From an uncultured Fibrobacteria bacterium (GTDB taxonomy: Bacteria; Fibrobacterota; Fibrobacteria; UBA11236), in assembly GCA_963716395.1 (NCBI GenBank), contig OY970309.1, positions 2,912,001-2,976,000 of the forward strand: a stretch of DNA of 64,000 nucleotides, read 5' to 3'. Position 1 is the stretch's first letter. Every line of letters starts with the position of its first letter. The notes below the pieces were generated by a model. That model was not told the DNA's origin. It saw only the letters and a program-made list of their open reading frames with translations, and did no database searches. Made by a program: the position numbers and the translations under genes. Positions 31,752 through 42,002 of this stretch are shown piece after piece.

Positions 31752-32432
31752 ATGCGGGCGTCAGGCAAGACGAAAATCGCGATGGTGTTCTCGCTCGCCG
31801 CCTGGCTTCCGGCCGGCGCGGGTACCGGCTGTTTTCCGCTGGCGCGGCTCAAATACGGCGGCGGGGGAGACTGGTACGCCGGGACCACCATGCTGCCCAA
31901 TCTGGCCCAAAGCCTGCGCTCGGATCTCGGCCTCAATGTGTGTCCCGAAGAGCGTACGGTCGATTTGCTGTCGAGCAACCTGTACGAAACGCCGGTGCTG
32001 TTCATGACGGGGCACGGCCGCGTCGCATTCACCGAGGAAGAGCGCCGCGTGCTGCGCGAGTTTTTGCGCCGCGGCGGCCTGTTGTTCGCCGACGACAATT
32101 ACGGCTTGGCCGAGTCGTTCCGCATCGAGATGAAGGCCTTGTTCCCCCACCGGCCTTTGCGCGTGATTCCCATCACGAATCCAATATTCAATAGCCATTA
32201 CCATTTTCCCAAGGGGTTGCCCAAAATCCATTACCATGACGGCCTGCCCGCCACGGCGTACGGCATCGAGATGGGCGGGCGCATCGTCGTGCTTTTTACC
32301 TACCAATGCGATTTGGGCAACGGCTGGGAAGATCACGAAGTGTATAACGACCCGCTGCCCTTGCATGAAGCGGCGTTGCGCATGGGCGTGAATGTCTTCG
32401 CCTGGTTTTTCGCCGGCGCGAGGGCGCGGTGA
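31752..32432 (+). CDS. DUF4159 domain protein
   Basis: LKYGGGGDWY, LFMTGHG, GGLLFADDNYG, GLPKIH.HDG, DLGNGWED, MGVN. Confidence 0.88.
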   Translation: MRASGKTKIAMVFSLAAWLPAGAGTGCFPLARLKYGGGGDWYAGTTMLPNLAQSLRSDLGLNVCPEERTVDLLSSNLYETPVLFMTGHGRVAFTEEERRVLREFLRRGGLLFADDNYGLAESFRIEMKALFPHRPLRVIPITNPIFNSHYHFPKGLPKIHYHDGLPATAYGIEMGGRIVVLFTYQCDLGNGWEDHEVYNDPLPLHEAALRMGVNVFAWFFAGARAR

Positions 32433-35400
32433 GCCGGCCCCTGCCTAGTTCCAGCCGCATGCGTTGGCCCGTGCTGGCGGGCTTGCAGGCGCGATTGTTC
32501 GCGGAGCGGCGCCGGCGTGTGGTTGCGGCCGGCGTTCGCGGGACGGTGGCAGCGCTGTCGTTGCAGGTGATCCTTTTGCCACTGCTGGCCTGGGCCTCGG
32601 CCGACCATCCCTATCAGATCGTGTGGATTCGGGCCTTGCAGGCGACCTTTCTGTTGTACCTCGCGGCGCCGGCGGCCGTGCTGGCCGCGTGGCGGCGCGG
32701 CCAATTGGGCTTGCGGCGCGCGGCTGAAGATTTGGATGGTGCGGGCGGGCCCGATCGCTTTCGCACCTTGCTGTCGCTCGACAACCATGGCCCCGAAACC
32801 CTGGACGCGCTCAACGCCTTTTATGCCCAGGTCGGCGGCGAAGCCTCGCTGCGCGCGGCGTCTCCCTTCGGCCCCTTTCCCTGGGCGCGGTTGGTGCTGT
32901 GTCTGGCTGCGGGCGCGTTGCTGCCGCTGGCCTCGGGGCATTACGCCGCCACTGTCTCCCGCATGCTGTTTCCGGTCGCGACCTGGAACCGGCGCCCGGT
33001 GCCGCGCTTGCAACCAATCGCCTTGCCCCACCGCATCGGACTGGGAGACACCTTGCGGTTACGGCTGCGCGTGACGCGACTGCCGGCCGATGAACCCGTC
33101 TACGCGGTGATCCGCGATGCGCGGCAAGAAATCCGCTATCCGCTGGAGCGACGGGGCGACACGGCCCGGCTGTTGCCAGGGCCCGTGTCAGGCGATCTTA
33201 CCGTGCGCTTCGAGGCCCGGGGCGCGGAAACGCCGGAGTGGACGGTGTACGCGGTGCCCCCGCCGCAACCCGATTCCTTCGGCGCCGTAATCCGGTCGCC
33301 GGCATACACGCATTTGCCGCCCGAAACCCTGTCACAGGTTCCGGCCACCCAGGCCGTTTTGCCGGGCAGCGAAGTGGCCTGGGGGATGCACACCTCGGAA
33401 CCGTTGTACCGGCTCATCGCCGTGATCCAAACCGCCGCGGCGCCGCCCGAAACCTTGCAATTGGGAGCGGGAAGTGCGTTTCATTTCGCACGGGAAATCC
33501 GCGCGCCCGCGGCGTTGTGGTTGCGACTGCAAGCCGTGCAGGGCGGCGATACGATCACCGGGCGGGCCGGCCCTTACCGAATCGAGCTTTCCGCCGACGC
33601 GCCGCCTGAAATCGCCCTAGTCGAACCCGACTCGGATCAAGCCTTGGGCCGGGCGCTCAAATTGCCGGTGCTGTTCCGCGCGCGCGACGATTACGGCCTG
33701 GTGCGCGTGCGCTTGTGCTATGCGGTGTTCGGCGACGGGCTGAAATCGCAGGGTCGCAAAGACATCACTTCGTGGTGGCGGGCCGCCAGTGGTCTGGGCG
33801 GCGGCGTCTGGGATCTGGGCGGGTTGGAATTGTATCCGGGCAACGTCGTCGAGATGCATCTCGAAGCCACCGACAACGATGCCTTGGATCCGCATACCGC
33901 GCGTTCGCAAACCGTGCGGTTGCGCTTGCCGTCGATGGAAGAAGTGGTGACCCAGTTGGAGTCCAATGAGCGGAACGCGGCCACCAGCGTGCGCAGCGCC
34001 GAAGAACGCGCACAAGCTTTGCGCCGCGAATGGGACGAGTCGGGCCGGCCGGCTCCCGCGCCCGGTCCGCCGCTGCCGGGGGAATGGGACGTGGAACGCG
34101 TGCTCAGCCTGGAGCCGCGGCAAAGCGCGCAGCAAGTGCAAAGTTTTCTCGCCGACGCGCAACCGGGAAAAAGTGCCCGGCCGGGAGAAGCCCGGCGCGC
34201 GGCGCAGCGCGCGGCTTCGGCCCTGCAGCGGCAGGTGCCGGCTCCCGGCGTCAGTCGCCTGCCTCTGCAAGATCAGAAACGCATTCTCGACACCCTGCTG
34301 CGCGCTCAGGAAAATCTGACGCGCGCGTTTTCCACCTTGCCGCCCGCGCCGCCAAAGGCACCGCAAGCGGGATTGCTCCAGGCCCAGCGCGCTGCGCTGC
34401 AGGAGCAGCTCCACCGCCAACTCCAGGAACAAAAGGATTTGCGCGCCTGGATGCAGGATCAGCAGCGGGTGGCGGCCGAGCGCGCGCAGCGCTTACAGCA
34501 AGCGGAACAGGATCAGGCCCGGGTGCAGGCAGACATGCGCCAGGCCCTGGAACAAATGCAAAAGACCATGCAGAAGGCGGCCCAGAACGGCGTGTTGACG
34601 CCGGAGGTCATGGAGAAAATGCAGCGCGTGCGCGAATTGCTGCAAGGGCTGATGCCCGACAGCTTGATGCAAAATCAGCCAGCGGCTACGGGAAAGTTGG
34701 ATTTGGACGCGGTGCGCAAAAATCTCGACGACATGCTGAACCACGGCGACGCCTTGCGCGCCGGTTTGGATCAGGCGCTGCACATGCTCGAAATGCTGCA
34801 CGGACTGCGCGATTTGCAAAACTTTTCCCAAACCCTGCGTGGCCTCGAAGCCGGGCAAAAAGATTTGCAAGCGAAACTTTCCCACGGTACTAACGCGGAT
34901 TCCGCAGCCGCGTCGCAAGCCGCCTTGCGGCGGAAATTGGAGCAGACCTTGCAGTCCCTGGACAGTCTGGCCGCGCGCCAAGCCGCCTTTCGCCCTTTGC
35001 AGAAGCAAAGCCAGGGTCGCGCCGCGGCCGGTCAGATGCGGGCGGCCGAAAAGCAAATGCGCAGCGGGGCGAAAAATGCGGCGGCGCAAAGCGCGGCCCA
35101 GGCCGCGCAAAGTCTGGGTCAAGCCGCACAGCAACTCGATGCGTTCATGCAGCAATTCCAAGGCGGTCCCAGTGCCGACGAAATCGCAGCCGTGGTCGAG
35201 GAAACCCTCGAATTGACGCGCTGGATCGAGGTCGTGCGCAATCCCGCGTTTCGAAAGACCGCCGGATGGGTCGAAGGGGATTCGGCGTTGTTCCAGCGCG
35301 TTTCCGAAACGGCGCGATGGCTGCGCGGCAAAATGGACAAACTGGCCGCGCGGCAGCCTTATGCCGCCGATGAATTGACGGCGCAGGCCTCGGCCCTGGG

Positions 35401-36199
35401 ATTTTTTGCCCAAGCTTTGGCGCAAGACTATTCCGTAGATGAAGTCGATAGCGTGCAATATCATGCGCGTCTGGCCGCGCGCGAATTGCTGAAGTGGATG
35501 GATCGCGCCGAGCATCCGCCGACCGGAGGGAGCGGTGGGGGAATGGGATTACCCCAGGCCGGCGGTTCGCAACCGGGTGGCGGCCTCGACGCATTGGCAG
35601 GAAGGCTGAAGGGAATTTCGGGCCGGCAAATGGCGGTAAACGATGCCACGCAGCAATTGCTGCAGGCTTTCATGCAGGGCCGCCAACCCGGCGGCGGATC
35701 CGCAGGCGGCGGCGAAAGCGAAGGCGAGGGCGGGGAGGGAAATTCCCAGGATGGCGGCGGCGGAAAGCCGGGGGCTGCGGGCGGAGCGGCGCAAGCGCAG
35801 CAGGCCGTGGGCGAATCACTGGAAGACCTGGCCGAATCCGAAAGCGATGCCGGCGGTGCGGCGCGCAAGCTGCGCGCACTGGCGCAGGAAGCCCGCGACT
35901 TGGAAAACGATTTGCGTTCCGGTCGGCTTTCGGCCCAGGAGATCCGGCAACGGCAGGATCGCTTTCAAACCCGGCTCTTGCAAGCCGCCAACGCCCTGGA
36001 GGTGCGGGGAGAAGATCGCCGGCGCCAGGCCGAGGCGTATCGCGGCCAAGCCTTGTCGCCGTTGCCCGCCGATTCGACGCCGGGGCGCGACTGGATGCGC
36101 GAATTGCGCCGCCGACGTGACGCCGCTCGCGACTTGGCGCTGTCGCCTGAACAAAGAAGTTACCTCGAATGGTATTATGATCACCTGTTAGCGCAATGA
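32429..36199 (+). CDS. Large membrane-anchored coiled-coil protein (DUF4175-like)
   Basis: N-terminal TMs, Ig-like segments (PAYTHLP, DAPPEI, ARDDYGL, EATDND), long Gln-rich coiled coil, Gly-rich linker. Confidence 0.75.
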   Translation: MSRPLPSSSRMRWPVLAGLQARLFAERRRRVVAAGVRGTVAALSLQVILLPLLAWASADHPYQIVWIRALQATFLLYLAAPAAVLAAWRRGQLGLRRAAEDLDGAGGPDRFRTLLSLDNHGPETLDALNAFYAQVGGEASLRAASPFGPFPWARLVLCLAAGALLPLASGHYAATVSRMLFPVATWNRRPVPRLQPIALPHRIGLGDTLRLRLRVTRLPADEPVYAVIRDARQEIRYPLERRGDTARLLPGPVSGDLTVRFEARGAETPEWTVYAVPPPQPDSFGAVIRSPAYTHLPPETLSQVPATQAVLPGSEVAWGMHTSEPLYRLIAVIQTAAAPPETLQLGAGSAFHFAREIRAPAALWLRLQAVQGGDTITGRAGPYRIELSADAPPEIALVEPDSDQALGRALKLPVLFRARDDYGLVRVRLCYAVFGDGLKSQGRKDITSWWRAASGLGGGVWDLGGLELYPGNVVEMHLEATDNDALDPHTARSQTVRLRLPSMEEVVTQLESNERNAATSVRSAEERAQALRREWDESGRPAPAPGPPLPGEWDVERVLSLEPRQSAQQVQSFLADAQPGKSARPGEARRAAQRAASALQRQVPAPGVSRLPLQDQKRILDTLLRAQENLTRAFSTLPPAPPKAPQAGLLQAQRAALQEQLHRQLQEQKDLRAWMQDQQRVAAERAQRLQQAEQDQARVQADMRQALEQMQKTMQKAAQNGVLTPEVMEKMQRVRELLQGLMPDSLMQNQPAATGKLDLDAVRKNLDDMLNHGDALRAGLDQALHMLEMLHGLRDLQNFSQTLRGLEAGQKDLQAKLSHGTNADSAAASQAALRRKLEQTLQSLDSLAARQAAFRPLQKQSQGRAAAGQMRAAEKQMRSGAKNAAAQSAAQAAQSLGQAAQQLDAFMQQFQGGPSADEIAAVVEETLELTRWIEVVRNPAFRKTAGWVEGDSALFQRVSETARWLRGKMDKLAARQPYAADELTAQASALGFFAQALAQDYSVDEVDSVQYHARLAARELLKWMDRAEHPPTGGSGGGMGLPQAGGSQPGGGLDALAGRLKGISGRQMAVNDATQQLLQAFMQGRQPGGGSAGGGESEGEGGEGNSQDGGGGKPGAAGGAAQAQQAVGESLEDLAESESDAGGAARKLRALAQEARDLENDLRSGRLSAQEIRQRQDRFQTRLLQAANALEVRGEDRRRQAEAYRGQALSPLPADSTPGRDWMRELRRRRDAARDLALSPEQRSYLEWYYDHLLAQ

Positions 36200-37036: not shown

Positions 37037-39709
37037 ATGGCACAACGCTATCTGACCACCCTCGAAAAGCGCAGCGATTTCGTGGAAAATCTGCGCGACG
37101 CCTTTGAAGCGCCCGATCCGGGGGCGCGCAACCGCGCCATCAAAGAACTGATTCAGAAACAACACGGGAAAATCCGGCGGCTGAATCGCGAAGGCGCTTC
37201 GGGCGCCGATACCGTGCGCTTTCTCAGCGAAACCGTCGACACCGTGTTGCGTGTGCTCTGGGATCACGTGGAAATGAGCGTTCCCGACGCCGCCAATCTC
37301 GTGGCGCTGGTGGCCGTCGGGGGGTATGGCCGCATGGAGCTCTGCCCGCAAAGCGACATCGACCTGCTCATCCTGACTTCGGCGAAACCCGACGCGCAGG
37401 AAGTGGCGCAGGCCGAAACCATCGTCCGCAGCCTGTGGGATTTCGGTTTCACTGCGGGATCCTCGGTGCGTTCGGTGGCCCAATGCCAGGAAGCATCGGC
37501 CAAAGACCCGGACACCTGGACCTCGTTTCTGAACGAGCGCTTCGTGGCCGGCAACCACGCCTTGTACCAACGCTTCGTACACATGATGGGCAAGCGCCTG
37601 TTTCCCTGGCGCGTATCGACCTTGGTGGCTTCCAAACTCAGCGAGCGGCAGGCGCGTCTGGGCAAGACCGGAACCCTGATTCAGTTGCTCGAACCCAACA
37701 TCAAAGAAGGGCTGGGGTGCTTGCGCGACGTGCACACCATGATGTGGGTGGCCCAGGTCAAACATGGCTGTTCCACCTTCGGCGATTTGGTGCGCGAGGG
37801 CCTTATCACCCCGCAAGAGCAGGAGGATTTGCAGGCCGCCTACGATTTTCTCCTGCAAGTGCGTTGCTGTCTGCATTTCCTCACCCAGAAAAAAGACGAC
37901 CGGCTGAGTTTTTATCTGCAACCCGAGGTCGCGGCCGAGTTGGGCTTCGTCGACGACGGCTCCTTCAAGGCGGTGGAGATTTTTCTCAAGGTGTTTTACC
38001 ACCACACCAAAACCGTGTTCCGCGTGGCCGAAACCGTGATTTCGCGCTGGATGCGGTCGCCGGGAAAAACGCTCAAGTACGAAGAGCTGCGGCAGCATCC
38101 CCATTTTCAGGCCGTCGAGGGCGCGCTCGATCTCACCACGCGCGTTGGCAATCCCTTTCGCGGCCGGCTCGATCTTGTGCTCGAATACTTCGACCTGGTG
38201 AACCGCCTGAACCTGGGGTATGCCCACCATGCCGTGTTGCGCATCAAACAGGCGGTGGCCCTGGTCACGGGAGAGCTGCCCGAGGCTCCCGCGCACCTGG
38301 CGCGTTTTCTGGCACTGTGCCAGCGTTCCGAACGCGTGGGGCGCATGCTGCGCGCCATGAGCGATGTGGGGCTCGTCGGCCTGCTCCTGCCCGATTTCAA
38401 CCTCATTTATTGCCATAGCCAACACGATATCTATCACATCTACACCACCGACGAACACACCATCACCGTGGTGCGCCAGTTGGCGTATCTGCCCCAGCGG
38501 CCGGAAAAGGAATTGGCGTCGCTACGGGCCGCCCTGGAACAGGTGAGCGATCGCGAAGTGCTGGTGCTGGCCTGCTTCTACCACGACATCGGCAAAGGTC
38601 TGGGCGCCGGCCATTCGGCCAGCGGCGCGCGCTTGGTCTTTCAATTCATGGAGCGTATGGGATTTTCGGCCTCGCGCTGTCTGACCGCCTCCAATCTGGT
38701 GCTGCACCATTTGCTGATGAACGAGGTGATCCAGCGCCGCGACCTGGAAGATCCCAAAACCATCCACGATTTCACCACGAAAATCGAAAGCCCGGCATTT
38801 TTGCACAAGTTGTACGTCCTGACCTATTGCGATGCATCTTCGGTGCATCCCGACGCCTGGTCGAATTGGAAAGCGTCGCTGCTGCAGCAGTTGTATGAGC
38901 ATGCGCTGCGCATGCTTTTGCAGCCCTACCAGGCGGCCCAGGTGCGGCGCGGGCCCGAAGCCTCCGAAGTGCTGGCGGCGCTGGGGCGCGTGCTTGCACC
39001 CGATGCCGCGCAGGCCCATTGGCAGGCGCTGACCGAGAATTATTTGGCCGCCCATTCGGCCGAAGAGATCGCCCTGCATGCCAAGCTGCTGGAGCGGGTC
39101 GCCGCGGAAGGCTGCGGGGTTTACGTGCTGCCCAAATCCACGCATTGGGAAATTACCGTGGCGGCCCGGGACGAGGAAGCCCTGCTGTGCCGCATTGCAG
39201 GATGCCTGGCCCACCTTCAGCTTTCGATTCTGAGCGCGAAGATTTACACCCTAGGCGGCGGCAAAGTGGTGGATCGGTTTTGGGTGGCGCTGCCCGAAGA
39301 CGCGACGCTGACCGCCGAGGTGTTGCGCGCGCACCTGTTGGCCGAACTGCAAATGCGGTTTCGCTTGGGGCGCGACGAACTGCAGGACTTGCGCCTTATC
39401 CGGGTACGCCCCGGCGCTTTACCCGAAGGCGATGCGCCGGCCGCGGCTAACGTATTGGTTTCAAATGAAATATCCGACACCTTCACCGTGGTCGACGTGA
39501 CTTGCCGCGATCAAATCGGTCTTTTGTTCCAGGTGGCGTTGGTGTTGAGTGAACTGGGACTCAACGTGCACGGCGCCGTGTTGACCACCGAAGCCGACAA
39601 AGCCATGGACGCCTTCTACATCACTGCCGCGGATGGAGCAAAGGTCACCGACGCCGCGCGTTGCCAAGCCATCATCGCCGCGCTCGAACGCGAACTCGCC
39701 TTCCATTAG
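37037..39709 (+). CDS. glnD: [Protein-PII] uridylyltransferase/uridylyl-removing enzyme
   Basis: AVGGYGR.EL.PQSDIDL, EPNIKEG.G.LRD, HD domain (YHDIGKG), two ACT domains. Confidence 0.96.
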   Translation: MAQRYLTTLEKRSDFVENLRDAFEAPDPGARNRAIKELIQKQHGKIRRLNREGASGADTVRFLSETVDTVLRVLWDHVEMSVPDAANLVALVAVGGYGRMELCPQSDIDLLILTSAKPDAQEVAQAETIVRSLWDFGFTAGSSVRSVAQCQEASAKDPDTWTSFLNERFVAGNHALYQRFVHMMGKRLFPWRVSTLVASKLSERQARLGKTGTLIQLLEPNIKEGLGCLRDVHTMMWVAQVKHGCSTFGDLVREGLITPQEQEDLQAAYDFLLQVRCCLHFLTQKKDDRLSFYLQPEVAAELGFVDDGSFKAVEIFLKVFYHHTKTVFRVAETVISRWMRSPGKTLKYEELRQHPHFQAVEGALDLTTRVGNPFRGRLDLVLEYFDLVNRLNLGYAHHAVLRIKQAVALVTGELPEAPAHLARFLALCQRSERVGRMLRAMSDVGLVGLLLPDFNLIYCHSQHDIYHIYTTDEHTITVVRQLAYLPQRPEKELASLRAALEQVSDREVLVLACFYHDIGKGLGAGHSASGARLVFQFMERMGFSASRCLTASNLVLHHLLMNEVIQRRDLEDPKTIHDFTTKIESPAFLHKLYVLTYCDASSVHPDAWSNWKASLLQQLYEHALRMLLQPYQAAQVRRGPEASEVLAALGRVLAPDAAQAHWQALTENYLAAHSAEEIALHAKLLERVAAEGCGVYVLPKSTHWEITVAARDEEALLCRIAGCLAHLQLSILSAKIYTLGGGKVVDRFWVALPEDATLTAEVLRAHLLAELQMRFRLGRDELQDLRLIRVRPGALPEGDAPAAANVLVSNEISDTFTVVDVTCRDQIGLLFQVALVLSELGLNVHGAVLTTEADKAMDAFYITAADGAKVTDAARCQAIIAALERELAFH

Positions 39710-39767
39710 GCGGGGTCACCCGCACGCTGCGTACCATCGCCGACACCCCCCGCGGTGAAGGAATGGC

Positions 39768-39796
39768 TTGACTAATTCTTTCCATCACTTTATCAT
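39768..39796 (+). promoter_or_regulatory. Sigma70 promoter
   Basis: TTGACT-17 bp-TATCAT in an AT-rich intergenic region. Confidence 0.7.
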
Positions 39797-39986
39797 TTAC
39801 CACAGAACCGACGATCACAGGAAGAACTCGTTGACCCGTCCGCTCCCGTCATTGCTCCTTTTCCCATCCCAATCACGCCCTGCTATCGTCGGGTGCCTAA
39901 TAAATACGGGGCTTTCAAACGTATACTGCCATTTAAACAACATAAATCACAAATTGAATTGAACCCATCCGGAGGGAGGTGATCAC

Positions 39987-40061
39987 ATGGCCGCTAAGAA
40001 AAAAGCGAAGAAGGCCGCCAAGAAAAAGGCAGCCAAGAAATCCGCTAAGAAGAAGAAATAA
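39987..40061 (+). CDS. 24-aa Lys/Ala-rich histone H1-like micro-protein (MAAKKKAKKAAKKKAAKKSAKKKK)
   Basis: Perfect SD GGAGGTGATC directly upstream; varied synonymous Lys/Ala codons; TAA stop; terminator follows; below the ORF-track size cut-off. Confidence 0.85.
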   Translation: MAAKKKAKKAAKKKAAKKSAKKKK

Positions 40062-40101
40062 CGTGTTCTGATTCCATCTCTCATGGAATCAATCGGTTAA
40101 G

Positions 40102-40137
40102 GGAGGCCAGGACGTCCTGGCCTCCTTTTTGTTTTTA
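40102..40137 (+). terminator. Rho-independent terminator
   Basis: GGAGGCCAGG-ACGT-CCTGGCCTCC followed by TTTTTGTTTTT. Confidence 0.9.
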
Positions 40138-40274
40138 TCGCCGCGACGACCTTCGCGTCGTCTTACCCACTGGCGTCGGCGCGACGCGCCTCACTTTTCG
40201 GCCAGGAAATTCGGGGAGTGGTACTTCCGACGGGTAAAAAATCTTCGCTACCGCGGCCGGAGGCTGAGACCCGC

Positions 40275-42002
40275 TTACATCGTCTCAATGGCGGGAACGC
40301 CGATGAGATCGAGCGCCGCGGCCAGTACGGATTTGACGATGTGTACCAAGACCAGGCGTTCCGCTTCTTCGGGGGCGCCGATCACGCGCGAAGAATGCAG
40401 AAAATGGTGCGTGGCGTCGGCCAGGCCCAGGGCGAATTGGGCCATGGGACAGGGATCGCGTCCGTCGATGACGGCCGTGATTTTATCCGGGAATTGGGCC
40501 ACCCATTCCACCAAGGCGAACGACGCTGGGTCGGCCAATACGCTCCAGCGCAGGGCGGCCAACGCCGCGACGTCATATGCCGGCGGCGCGTCGGCTTTGC
40601 GCAGAATGCTGCACAGGCGCACATGGGCGTTTTGCACATAGGGTCCGGAATCACCTTCGAAACTCAGGGCCTGGTCCCATTCGAAGCGAATGTCGTTTTG
40701 GCGGCGGTTTTTCATTTCGCCGAACACCAAAGCGCCCACACCGATGCGCATGGCCAGGTCGCGATCGCCCGCCGCCGTGGGATTTTTTTCGGACATGACG
40801 GTCAGGATTTTTTCCTGCGCGGCTTCAAGCACGTCTTTGAGCAGGCTCGCCTGCCCGGTGCGTGACTTGCCTTTTTCCCAGCCGCCGTCGTCGCTTTTGA
40901 TCAACACCAGACCGAAGGGAATGTGTTCGCAGCGTCGCGACCACGCATACCCCAACAGATCCAAGATTTTGAACAACTGCTGAAAATGCAGACTTTGTCC
41001 GTTGTCCACCACATAGAGGCAATGGTCGAAGGCATATTCGCGCTGGCGATGCACGGCGGCCGCCAAGTCGCGGGTGATGTACAAGGTGGCGCCGTCGGAT
41101 TTGCGGATCAGGGCAGGTGGCATACCGAACTCCGACAGGTCCACGATTTCGGCGCCTTGGCTTTCACGCAGCAAGCTGCGATCGCGCAGAAGATGGCGGG
41201 TCGCTTCGGCCTGATCGGCGAAATAGGCTTCGCCCACAAACGCGTCGAATTCCACGTTCAACAGGGAGTACAGCCGCCGCAATTCCTGCAGTGTCACTTC
41301 GCGAAAAGCGGCCCACAGTTTGCGATAGTGCGCGTCGCCCGCCTCGAGCTGTGCAAAGGCGCGGCGCGCTTCCTCTTCGAGAGCGGGCTCGGCGCGCGCC
41401 GCTTCGTCGAAGGCGCGGTACAGCGCATTGAGGCGCGGCAGGGTCAAGGCCGTTAGATCGTTTTCGCGCAGGCCTTCGCGGCCGAACATGACGATCAATT
41501 TTCCGTAGGAGGTACCCCAATCGCCCAAGTGGTTGACCCGCACCACGTTGAAACCGCCGGCGGCAAAAGCCCGGCTCAGGCAATGTCCGATCATGGTACC
41601 GCGCAAATGGTGAAAGGCCAACTCTTTGCCCATGTTGGGCGACGAATAATCGATCACTGCGCATCGACCCGCCCCGCGGGAACTGCGCCCGTACTCCGGG
41701 CCTTCCTGCACCACCTGCAGAATCACCCGGCGGGCGAAGTCGGACTTGTCGACGAAAAAATTGAGGTAGCCGCCAAGGGCCTCGATTTTTACGAAGCCGG
41801 GCGGCGGCTGCAAGTGGGCGGCAAGTTCCGCGGCCACGGCGGCCGGCGCTTGCCGCCGGCTTTTGGCCAAGGGAAAACAGGGAAAGGAAAAATCGCCGTG
41901 CGCGGCGTGTTGTGGAAGCAGAATGGAACTCTCCACCTGCTCTTCCGTCAGTCCCGTTGCCGGGGCAACGAGCAGGGCGATATCGCGCTTAAAGGTCGTC
42001 AT
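40275..42002 (-). CDS. argS: Arginine--tRNA ligase
   Basis: HGDFSFPCF, IDYSSPN, NHLGDWG, KSDGATLY.TRDLA, EGDSGPY.Q.AH.RL.SI, DALR anticodon domain. Confidence 0.96.
   Translation of the reverse strand: MTTFKRDIALLVAPATGLTEEQVESSILLPQHAAHGDFSFPCFPLAKSRRQAPAAVAAELAAHLQPPPGFVKIEALGGYLNFFVDKSDFARRVILQVVQEGPEYGRSSRGAGRCAVIDYSSPNMGKELAFHHLRGTMIGHCLSRAFAAGGFNVVRVNHLGDWGTSYGKLIVMFGREGLRENDLTALTLPRLNALYRAFDEAARAEPALEEEARRAFAQLEAGDAHYRKLWAAFREVTLQELRRLYSLLNVEFDAFVGEAYFADQAEATRHLLRDRSLLRESQGAEIVDLSEFGMPPALIRKSDGATLYITRDLAAAVHRQREYAFDHCLYVVDNGQSLHFQQLFKILDLLGYAWSRRCEHIPFGLVLIKSDDGGWEKGKSRTGQASLLKDVLEAAQEKILTVMSEKNPTAAGDRDLAMRIGVGALVFGEMKNRRQNDIRFEWDQALSFEGDSGPYVQNAHVRLCSILRKADAPPAYDVAALAALRWSVLADPASFALVEWVAQFPDKITAVIDGRDPCPMAQFALGLADATHHFLHSSRVIGAPEEAERLVLVHIVKSVLAAALDLIGVPAIETM

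Follow-up and report, generated by a model that had tools for sequence, protein, structure and literature searches.

A conserved, unannotated gene for a lysine- and alanine-rich micro-protein in Fibrobacterota

Introduction

Several bacterial proteins resemble the Lys/Ala-rich tail of histone H1, among them Hc1, Pseudomonas AlgP, the Burkholderia proteins of NF038053 and the tails of actinobacterial HU proteins, and these H1-like proteins have so far been known either as proteins of considerable length or as a tail joined to a folded domain. The ribosome offers a different kind of very small basic protein: Thermus bTHX, eukaryotic eL41 and mycobacterial bS22 and bL37 are ~25 residues long, Arg-rich and very highly positively charged, with an RNA-binding chemistry. 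In chlamydiae, Hc2 has been described as length polymorphic through Lys-rich repeats (PMC2848022). Here we describe a gene from an uncultured Fibrobacteria bacterium whose whole product is a Lys/Ala peptide of 24 residues. The gene lies between glnD and argS within a 64,000-nucleotide stretch of contig OY970309.1, which we call the window and number from its first letter.

We confirm that the interval 39987-40061 of the window is a real and conserved gene that has remained unannotated. A free-standing 24-residue version of an H1-like tail would be a so far unrecognised component of bacterial chromatin or RNA biology. Its existence is supported by its presence in every genome of the family, its absence from protein catalogues and the occurrence of look-alikes in many phyla. 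It also points to a systematic blind spot, in that such open reading frames (ORFs) are skipped by gene callers and their scores are cancelled by profile tools.

Results

The micro-gene and its product

The ORF translates as MAAKKKAKKAAKKKAAKKSAKKKK, which consists of 14 Lys, 8 Ala, 1 Ser and 1 Met, without Arg, in agreement with the 14 Lys and 8 Ala reported in a preliminary description of this DNA. The same description took the ORF for a stand-alone protein-coding micro-gene and this is borne out, as the ORF has its own promoter, an exceptionally long Shine-Dalgarno (SD) sequence, a 3' hairpin and a terminator. The peptide has a calculated mass of 2599 Da with Met and 2468 Da without it, and a calculated charge of about +13.5 at pH 7. 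The Lys residues are spread evenly around a notional helix (mean resultant 0.08), so the peptide has no amphipathic face; a hydrophobic face and a signal peptide are likewise lacking. From the even Lys spread and the lack of a signal peptide we infer that it is probably not a membrane-active or antimicrobial helix, and we rejected this candidate.

The host genome is a single contig of 3,754,783 bases with 59.8% G+C and one 16S gene. This 3.75-Mb genome has 58,401 ORFs with 10 or more codons, to which we applied a Lys/Ala/Arg composition filter. Five passed, and the micro-gene was the only one of these longer than 18 residues.

Conservation and selection on the product

A DNA search of 40 relatives returned 19 loci, and all 19 hold a Lys/Ala ORF that starts MAxKKK (x being A, T or I) or MAKK. 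The ORF has glnD upstream and a convergent argS downstream in 17 of the loci; the other two are a locus at a contig edge, with argS only, and a second copy elsewhere in its genome (L009). When 296 genomes of the phylum were scanned by pattern, the gene was detected in 29 of the 31 other genomes of the window's family. Both misses are explained, one by an ORF that starts MAKKK (genome G002, locus L008) and one by a copy cut by the contig end beside argS (genome G012). With these resolved, the check that the preliminary description had proposed, for conservation between glnD and argS in relatives, finds the gene in all 31 other family genomes. These tallies include one unpublished genome (G276); without it they become 28/30 by pattern and 30/30 overall.

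The proteins encoded on the two flanks have diverged to 50-72% identity, while the ATG is still invariant in 27 distinct loci, and the start, frame, SD and Lys positions are retained across the family. Among 13 distinct orthologues of 28 codons, the variable sites are distributed 7:7:18 over the first, second and third codon positions. In these orthologues AAG and AAA interchange at Lys positions with Lys kept, and the other positions vary among Ala, Val, Thr, Ser and Pro. In the window's own genus, orthologues have gained or lost xxKK units, so that their products are 14-91 residues long. Every length difference (9-91 codons) is in frame, and runs of A never exceed 9 bases. Because third codon positions vary most while Lys and the frame are kept, these data indicate that selection is acting on a translated product of defined composition and not on a DNA repeat, as the preliminary description had argued from synonymous variation within the single gene. 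What is conserved is composition rather than sequence. Such a length range suggests that function depends on charge and composition and not on a fixed fold or pocket, which argues against a fixed ribosomal site, an alternative that had been left open before.

These comparisons also bear on whether there is a gene here at all, as the ORF might have arisen by chance, reflect a DNA microsatellite or mirror a gene on the opposite strand. The sequence is indeed of low complexity, and an antisense ORF of 33 codons, rich in Phe, Leu and Ala (39983-40084, minus strand), is open across it. However, the complements of Lys and Ala codons contain no stops, so this antisense frame is open automatically, and we rejected it as a gene and regard it as a mirror effect. 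In addition, conservation at the level of neighbour divergence given above extends to the start, stop and frame, the SD and the flanking signals, the third-position bias of the variation points to coding, and the orientation of promoter, SD and T run is in each case that of the plus strand. We find a non-gene origin hardly credible. A further overlapping ORF of 30 codons lies in another frame of the plus strand (39979-40071); its translation, read by eye, is Arg-rich, and its GTG start falls inside the SD. Neither of the two overlapping ORFs has signals of its own, and both are by-products of the repeat.

Some loci collected in these searches deserve separate mention. L009 (genome G007, contig C96) is a non-syntenic second locus with a 49-residue Lys/Ala ORF and a different SD. 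A further start, MAKKAAKK..., follows ~60 nucleotides past its stop, which suggests tandem paralogues. Genome G012 carries both the micro-gene and a classical domain-plus-tail H1-like protein of 180 residues (L106, 2181-2723, minus strand), which has a short N-terminal part and a long Lys/Ala/Pro tail with PAKKAAK repeats. Three contigs titled as Bifidobacterium or Bifidobacteriales metagenome-assembled genomes (L035, L038 and L054) duplicate the Fibrobacterota loci L007, L012 and L006, respectively, in the leader and 3' stretches that we compared, and their titles may be mislabelled.

Promoter, leader and Shine-Dalgarno sequence

The coordinates of the gene, its signals and its neighbours are collected in Table 1.

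Table 1. The micro-gene, its expression signals and its two neighbours in the window
Feature	Position	Strand	Remarks
Sigma-70-type promoter	39768-39796	+	-35 TTGACT 39768-39773; 17-nucleotide spacer; -10 TATCAT 39791-39796
5' leader	39803-39986	+	~185 nucleotides; transcription start inferred
Conserved leader motifs	39819-39822; 39831-39836	+	AGGA; TTGACC
Small leader hairpin	39895-39912	+	loop AAUAAAUAC at 39899-39907
Extended SD	39971-39984	+	GGAGGGAGGTGATC; GGAGG core ends 7 nucleotides before ATG
Lys/Ala micro-protein coding sequence	39987-40061	+	24 residues; TAA stop included
First 3' hairpin	40070-40090	+	GATTCCAT-CTCTC-ATGGAATC; in minimum-energy fold
Intrinsic terminator	40099-40137	+	13-pair stem 40099-40128, then T run
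glnD	37037-39709	+	upstream neighbour
argS	40275-42002	-	downstream neighbour, convergent with the micro-gene

The promoter matches the consensus at 10 of 12 positions and is the only promoter-like site that a consensus scan found in 39000-41000. The number of such sites is not significant by itself, as shuffles of this interval contain 0.7 on average. In our alignment of distinct orthologous loci neither hexamer varies (27/27), in support of the near-consensus promoter that had been noted from the single sequence. In 25 of the 27 orthologous promoters (alignment A1, columns 7-23; loci L002-L069), the TTGAC of the -35 element forms one half of an inverted repeat, TTGAC-N7-GTCAA, which looks like an operator. 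The second half of the repeat is gone in the window (39768-39790) and in the near relative L008.

The single 16S gene of the genome ends ...GGATCACCTCCTTTCTAA, so that the SD 10-mer GGAGGTGATC at 39975-39984 is fully complementary to the 16S tail. The full complementarity that had been claimed for this SD thus holds for the genome's own 16S 3' end. By direct reading, the extended SD and the 16S tail can form 14 consecutive pairs, 12 of them Watson-Crick and 2 G-U, a natural case of very long SD:anti-SD pairing, and GGGAGGTGAT within the SD is invariant in 27/27 loci. The SD 9-mer GGAGGTGAT is not enriched genome-wide (39 found and 29.3 expected); 9 of the 39 copies lie 1-9 nucleotides ahead of a start codon that opens at least 24 codons.

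In the leader, the columns GGA and AAT.A..A..G are invariant or nearly so among the 27 loci; the AGGA motif and the small hairpin with its loop are among the invariant elements. Folded by itself, the window leader does not outperform its shuffles (z +1.94), and RNAalifold on the whole-family leader alignment gave no common fold; a genus-level alignment gave a weak one. Searches with Rfam 15 returned only sub-threshold chance matches, both for 39000-41000 of the window (best 22.3 bits, gathering score 72.2) and for four relatives' loci. The genome also contains a CsrA gene, and a tie between CsrA and the conserved GGA motifs is an idea only.

The 3' hairpins and the terminator

The hairpin that the preliminary description had placed after the stop codon forms in the predicted fold. 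A hairpin occupies this position in 23/23 of the relatives' 3' untranslated regions (UTRs), with a stem sequence that differs between lineages. The strong terminator described behind it is likewise present, with its stem and T run, and 6 of the 13 stem pairs show compensatory changes among the 23 aligned 3' UTRs. The two hairpins form together, not as alternatives, in 23/23 folds.

In the terminator (40099-40137) the words of the SD (39971-39984) and of the 16S tail recur, one in each arm, so that the hairpin resembles an SD:anti-SD duplex in cis. AGGGAGG, the SD heptamer, is found again in the left arm, AAGGGAGGCCAGG, and the right arm with its tail, CCTGGCCTCCTTTTT, shares the 8-mer CCTCCTTT with the 16S tail. 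Among the relatives, the SD word is present in the left arm as AAGGGAGGT in 10/23 3' UTRs. The 16S-tail word, which in all 3' UTR comparisons is that of the tail read in the window's own genome, is present as the 9-mer ACCTCCTTT in 12/23. Only 2 of the 2243 crude terminator-like sites of the genome have CCTCC right before the T run.

A covarying leader domain in the sister genus group

In a sister genus group the leader contains a domain of ~127 nucleotides with three helices and covariation (alignments A3/A4, covariance model R1; loci L011, L014-L017, L020, L024, L030, L034, L045, L053, L059, L063, L068 and L069). In this three-helix domain 89.6% of cells are paired and 9 pairs show double changes, compared with 27-52% paired when the partners were slid and 0/500 shuffles that reach the observed value; these figures are biased upwards as the structure was derived from the same alignment. 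Model R1 found a single copy in each of 16 of the 32 family genomes (15/15 in group g4 and 1/1 in g6), and the matches that were compared with the pattern scan sit immediately upstream of the micro-gene. It found none in the 11 genomes of the window's genus. With default filters it gave no match in the window or in 28 loci from relatives and other phyla, and without filters its only hit in the window was a partial match at 39885-39912, over the small leader hairpin, that is not significant (3.9 bits, E 0.38). No Rfam family matches the domain.

These features of the mRNA raise the possibility that the RNA is the main actor, with the ORF serving as a lysine-codon sensor or leader peptide, or with the mRNA titrating or sensing free 30S subunits. 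Such a role would fit the invariant 14-nucleotide SD, the repetition of the SD word in the terminator arms, the 16S-tail word shared by the window and 12 of the 23 3' UTRs, the rarity of the CCTCC ending, the conserved leader motifs and the structured, covarying leader domain of the sister genus. However, no same-strand gene follows that could be controlled, since argS is convergent in every locus with flanks, and the joint formation of the two 3' hairpins leaves no attenuator logic. On the same two grounds, convergent argS and independent hairpins, we ruled out an amino-acid attenuator leader peptide of the trpL/hisL type. The variation by codon position also indicates selection on the peptide itself, and the sister-group leader domain is absent from the window's genus. 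We consider it very unlikely that the RNA is the main actor.

Look-alike micro-genes in other lineages

We scanned a collection of one genome each for 185,579 species for AGGGAGGTGAT followed after 3-6 bases by ATG-GCN-NNN-(AAR)3, that is, an SD with a start MAxKKK in which x is any residue. The scan gave 51 matches, of which 49 open ORFs of 9-91 residues with 40-78% Lys. About half are relatives of the window (Fibrobacteria or Fibrobacterota titles). By record title, the others belong to Planctomycetes, Patescibacteria groups, Verrucomicrobiota, Kiritimatiellae, Elusimicrobia, Limnocylindria, Thermoanaerobaculia, Gammaproteobacteria and two archaea. Within the phylum, similar micro-ORFs occur at other loci in six further families (L072, L074, L085, L088, L090 and L094). 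The in-frame matches that we examined in the large Fibrobacter-like family included no free-standing Lys/Ala micro-ORF of this type. Homology between the lineages cannot be shown, because they have only composition in common. Two proteins of 95 residues from relatives in the phylum (L084 and L086) start MAAKKKAAKKSARK and continue into an apparent folded domain, as if the same N-terminal word were fused to a larger protein.

Database searches

The window protein has no match in Pfam or NCBIfam. The Hc2 profile (PF07382) matched neither it nor its 91- and 45-residue relatives at E<=10, and the nearest NCBIfam entry on the 91-residue relative, the Burkholderia H1-like NF038053, reached 6.8 bits with a cut-off of 80. 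No chain of the PDB sequence set matched at E<=10, although composition filters may hide one. In a word-based protein search with the 45-residue orthologue as query, 0/8000 candidates scored. Such negative results owe as much to low-complexity correction as to absence, and the composition correction of HMMER may suppress matches. In the ESM Atlas, the clusters nearest to a relative used as query are unnamed proteins of 42-49 residues, and the nearest Pfam-carrying cluster has HC2 (PF07382) on 17% of its members.

An exact look-up of 15 such proteins, 24-91 residues long and drawn from both this family and other phyla, found 0/15 in a collection of 15 billion proteins. Gene callers evidently skip such ORFs, as the preliminary description had predicted. 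The literature, as far as the sources available in part describe it, contains no account of free-standing bacterial oligolysine micro-proteins, nor of such genes in Fibrobacterota.

Elsewhere in the window, an ORF of 1256 residues (32429-36199, plus strand) upstream of a gene for an MlaE permease has no Pfam match at E<=0.001.

Discussion

We favour, with moderate confidence, a reading in which the peptide is abundant and disordered and, as a polycation, associates with polyanions through charge, in the manner of a free H1/Hc2 tail; nucleoid DNA or RNA would be the most likely target. In its favour are the conserved composition at variable length, which matches the length polymorphism of chlamydial Hc2, the even spread of Lys, and the wider class of look-alikes with the HC2-carrying cluster of the ESM Atlas. 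The independent monocistronic gene would be transcribed from its near-consensus promoter into an mRNA of ~335 nucleotides, whose 14-nucleotide SD would recruit 30S subunits to the 24-codon ORF. The two 3' hairpins, the second of them the intrinsic terminator, would end this mRNA and probably stabilise it. The peptide would then bind cellular polyanions stoichiometrically and independently of sequence, chromosomal DNA or RNA being the most likely, and binding could lead to charge neutralisation and compaction, as with a free-standing histone-H1/Hc2 tail or protamine. Both the high expression of the micro-gene and the binding of nucleic acid by its product are suggested here by sequence features.

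Several points weigh against this proposal. The genome already has four HU-family genes, so an extra nucleoid protein is not obviously needed, and composition alone cannot separate DNA, RNA, the ribosome or polyphosphate as the target. An SD of 14 nucleotides is not known to maximise translation, and a gene built for high output is thus an assumption. The gene neighbourhoods of the look-alikes are heterogeneous and give no functional hint: the 20 neighbour proteins that we scanned include an H+-pyrophosphatase, a LOG-like protein, a cellulase, a lipase, a ComM-like ATPase, SerRS and PrmC.

The peptide could instead be bound to the ribosome or rRNA, filling an rRNA pocket or acting in assembly or hibernation, as a counterpart of bTHX, eL41 or bS22/bL37. 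Its size, charge and translation-linked expression signals fit such a role, as do the complementarity of the SD to the whole 16S tail and the position of the gene next to that of a tRNA synthetase; in addition, the N-terminus encoded by a further gene that carries this 9-mer SD looks, by eye, like that of ribosomal protein L24. However, a range of 14-91 residues in one genus with only composition conserved is unexpected for a fixed rRNA site. The blank PDB search also speaks against it, within the limit set by composition filters, and translation genes are not the rule among the neighbours in other lineages. We regard a ribosomal role as unlikely.

Binding to polyphosphate or to another polyanion that is not a nucleic acid would rest on a chemistry identical to that of the reading we favour, and a precedent has been reported in the H1-like AlgP on polyphosphate granules (PMC9239181). 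On the other side, nothing at the locus or among the neighbours points to polyphosphate metabolism, and we judge this target quite unlikely.

Beyond the free polycation that we prefer, a broader and more speculative idea is that the micro-gene may represent a single lineage within a very widespread class, invisible to homology searches. Members of this class would be genetically encoded oligolysine "protein polyamines" of 9-91 residues, acting as bulk counter-ions of nucleic acids. In the present family their synthesis might be coupled to the free 30S pool, so that the mRNA would be a sensor or buffer of ribosome availability. Such a coupling is suggested by an SD that pairs with the entire 16S 3' tail (14 nucleotides) and by terminator arms that copy SD and anti-SD. 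We offer this only tentatively and think it improbable as a whole.

Comparison with known systems

The small basic ribosomal proteins are similar to the micro-protein in size, charge and RNA-binding chemistry. They differ in that their length and sequence are fixed within each lineage, whereas the micro-protein spans a six-fold length range in one genus and has no Arg.

Hc2 (HctB, PF07382) and the micro-protein are both Lys/Ala-rich repeat polycations, and in both the number of Lys-rich repeats, and with it the length, varies between close relatives. In contrast, Hc2 has 165-237 residues built from pentamer repeats and occurs in Chlamydiae, whereas the micro-protein has 24 residues (14-91 in relatives), follows a four-residue xxKK rhythm and occurs in Fibrobacterota. 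We rejected membership in the Hc2 family because of the missing PF07382 match and the size of 24 rather than >100 residues. A protein of the domain-plus-tail type of Hc1/HctA or NF038053 was also rejected, as it has no profile match and the whole protein is a 24-residue tail. Thus, of the resemblance to a histone-H1 tail or Hc1-type protein that the preliminary description had seen, the likeness in composition stands, but membership in the Hc1/Hc2 families does not, for want of a profile match and of a folded N-terminal domain.

The C-terminal tail of histone H1 and the tails of bacterial H1-like proteins share with the micro-protein a composition of Lys and Ala with some Thr, Val, Pro and Ser, and all are presumed to be disordered and to bind by charge. 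In the H1-like proteins, however, these tails are attached to a folded domain or belong to proteins of >100 residues, whereas here the tail is the entire protein.
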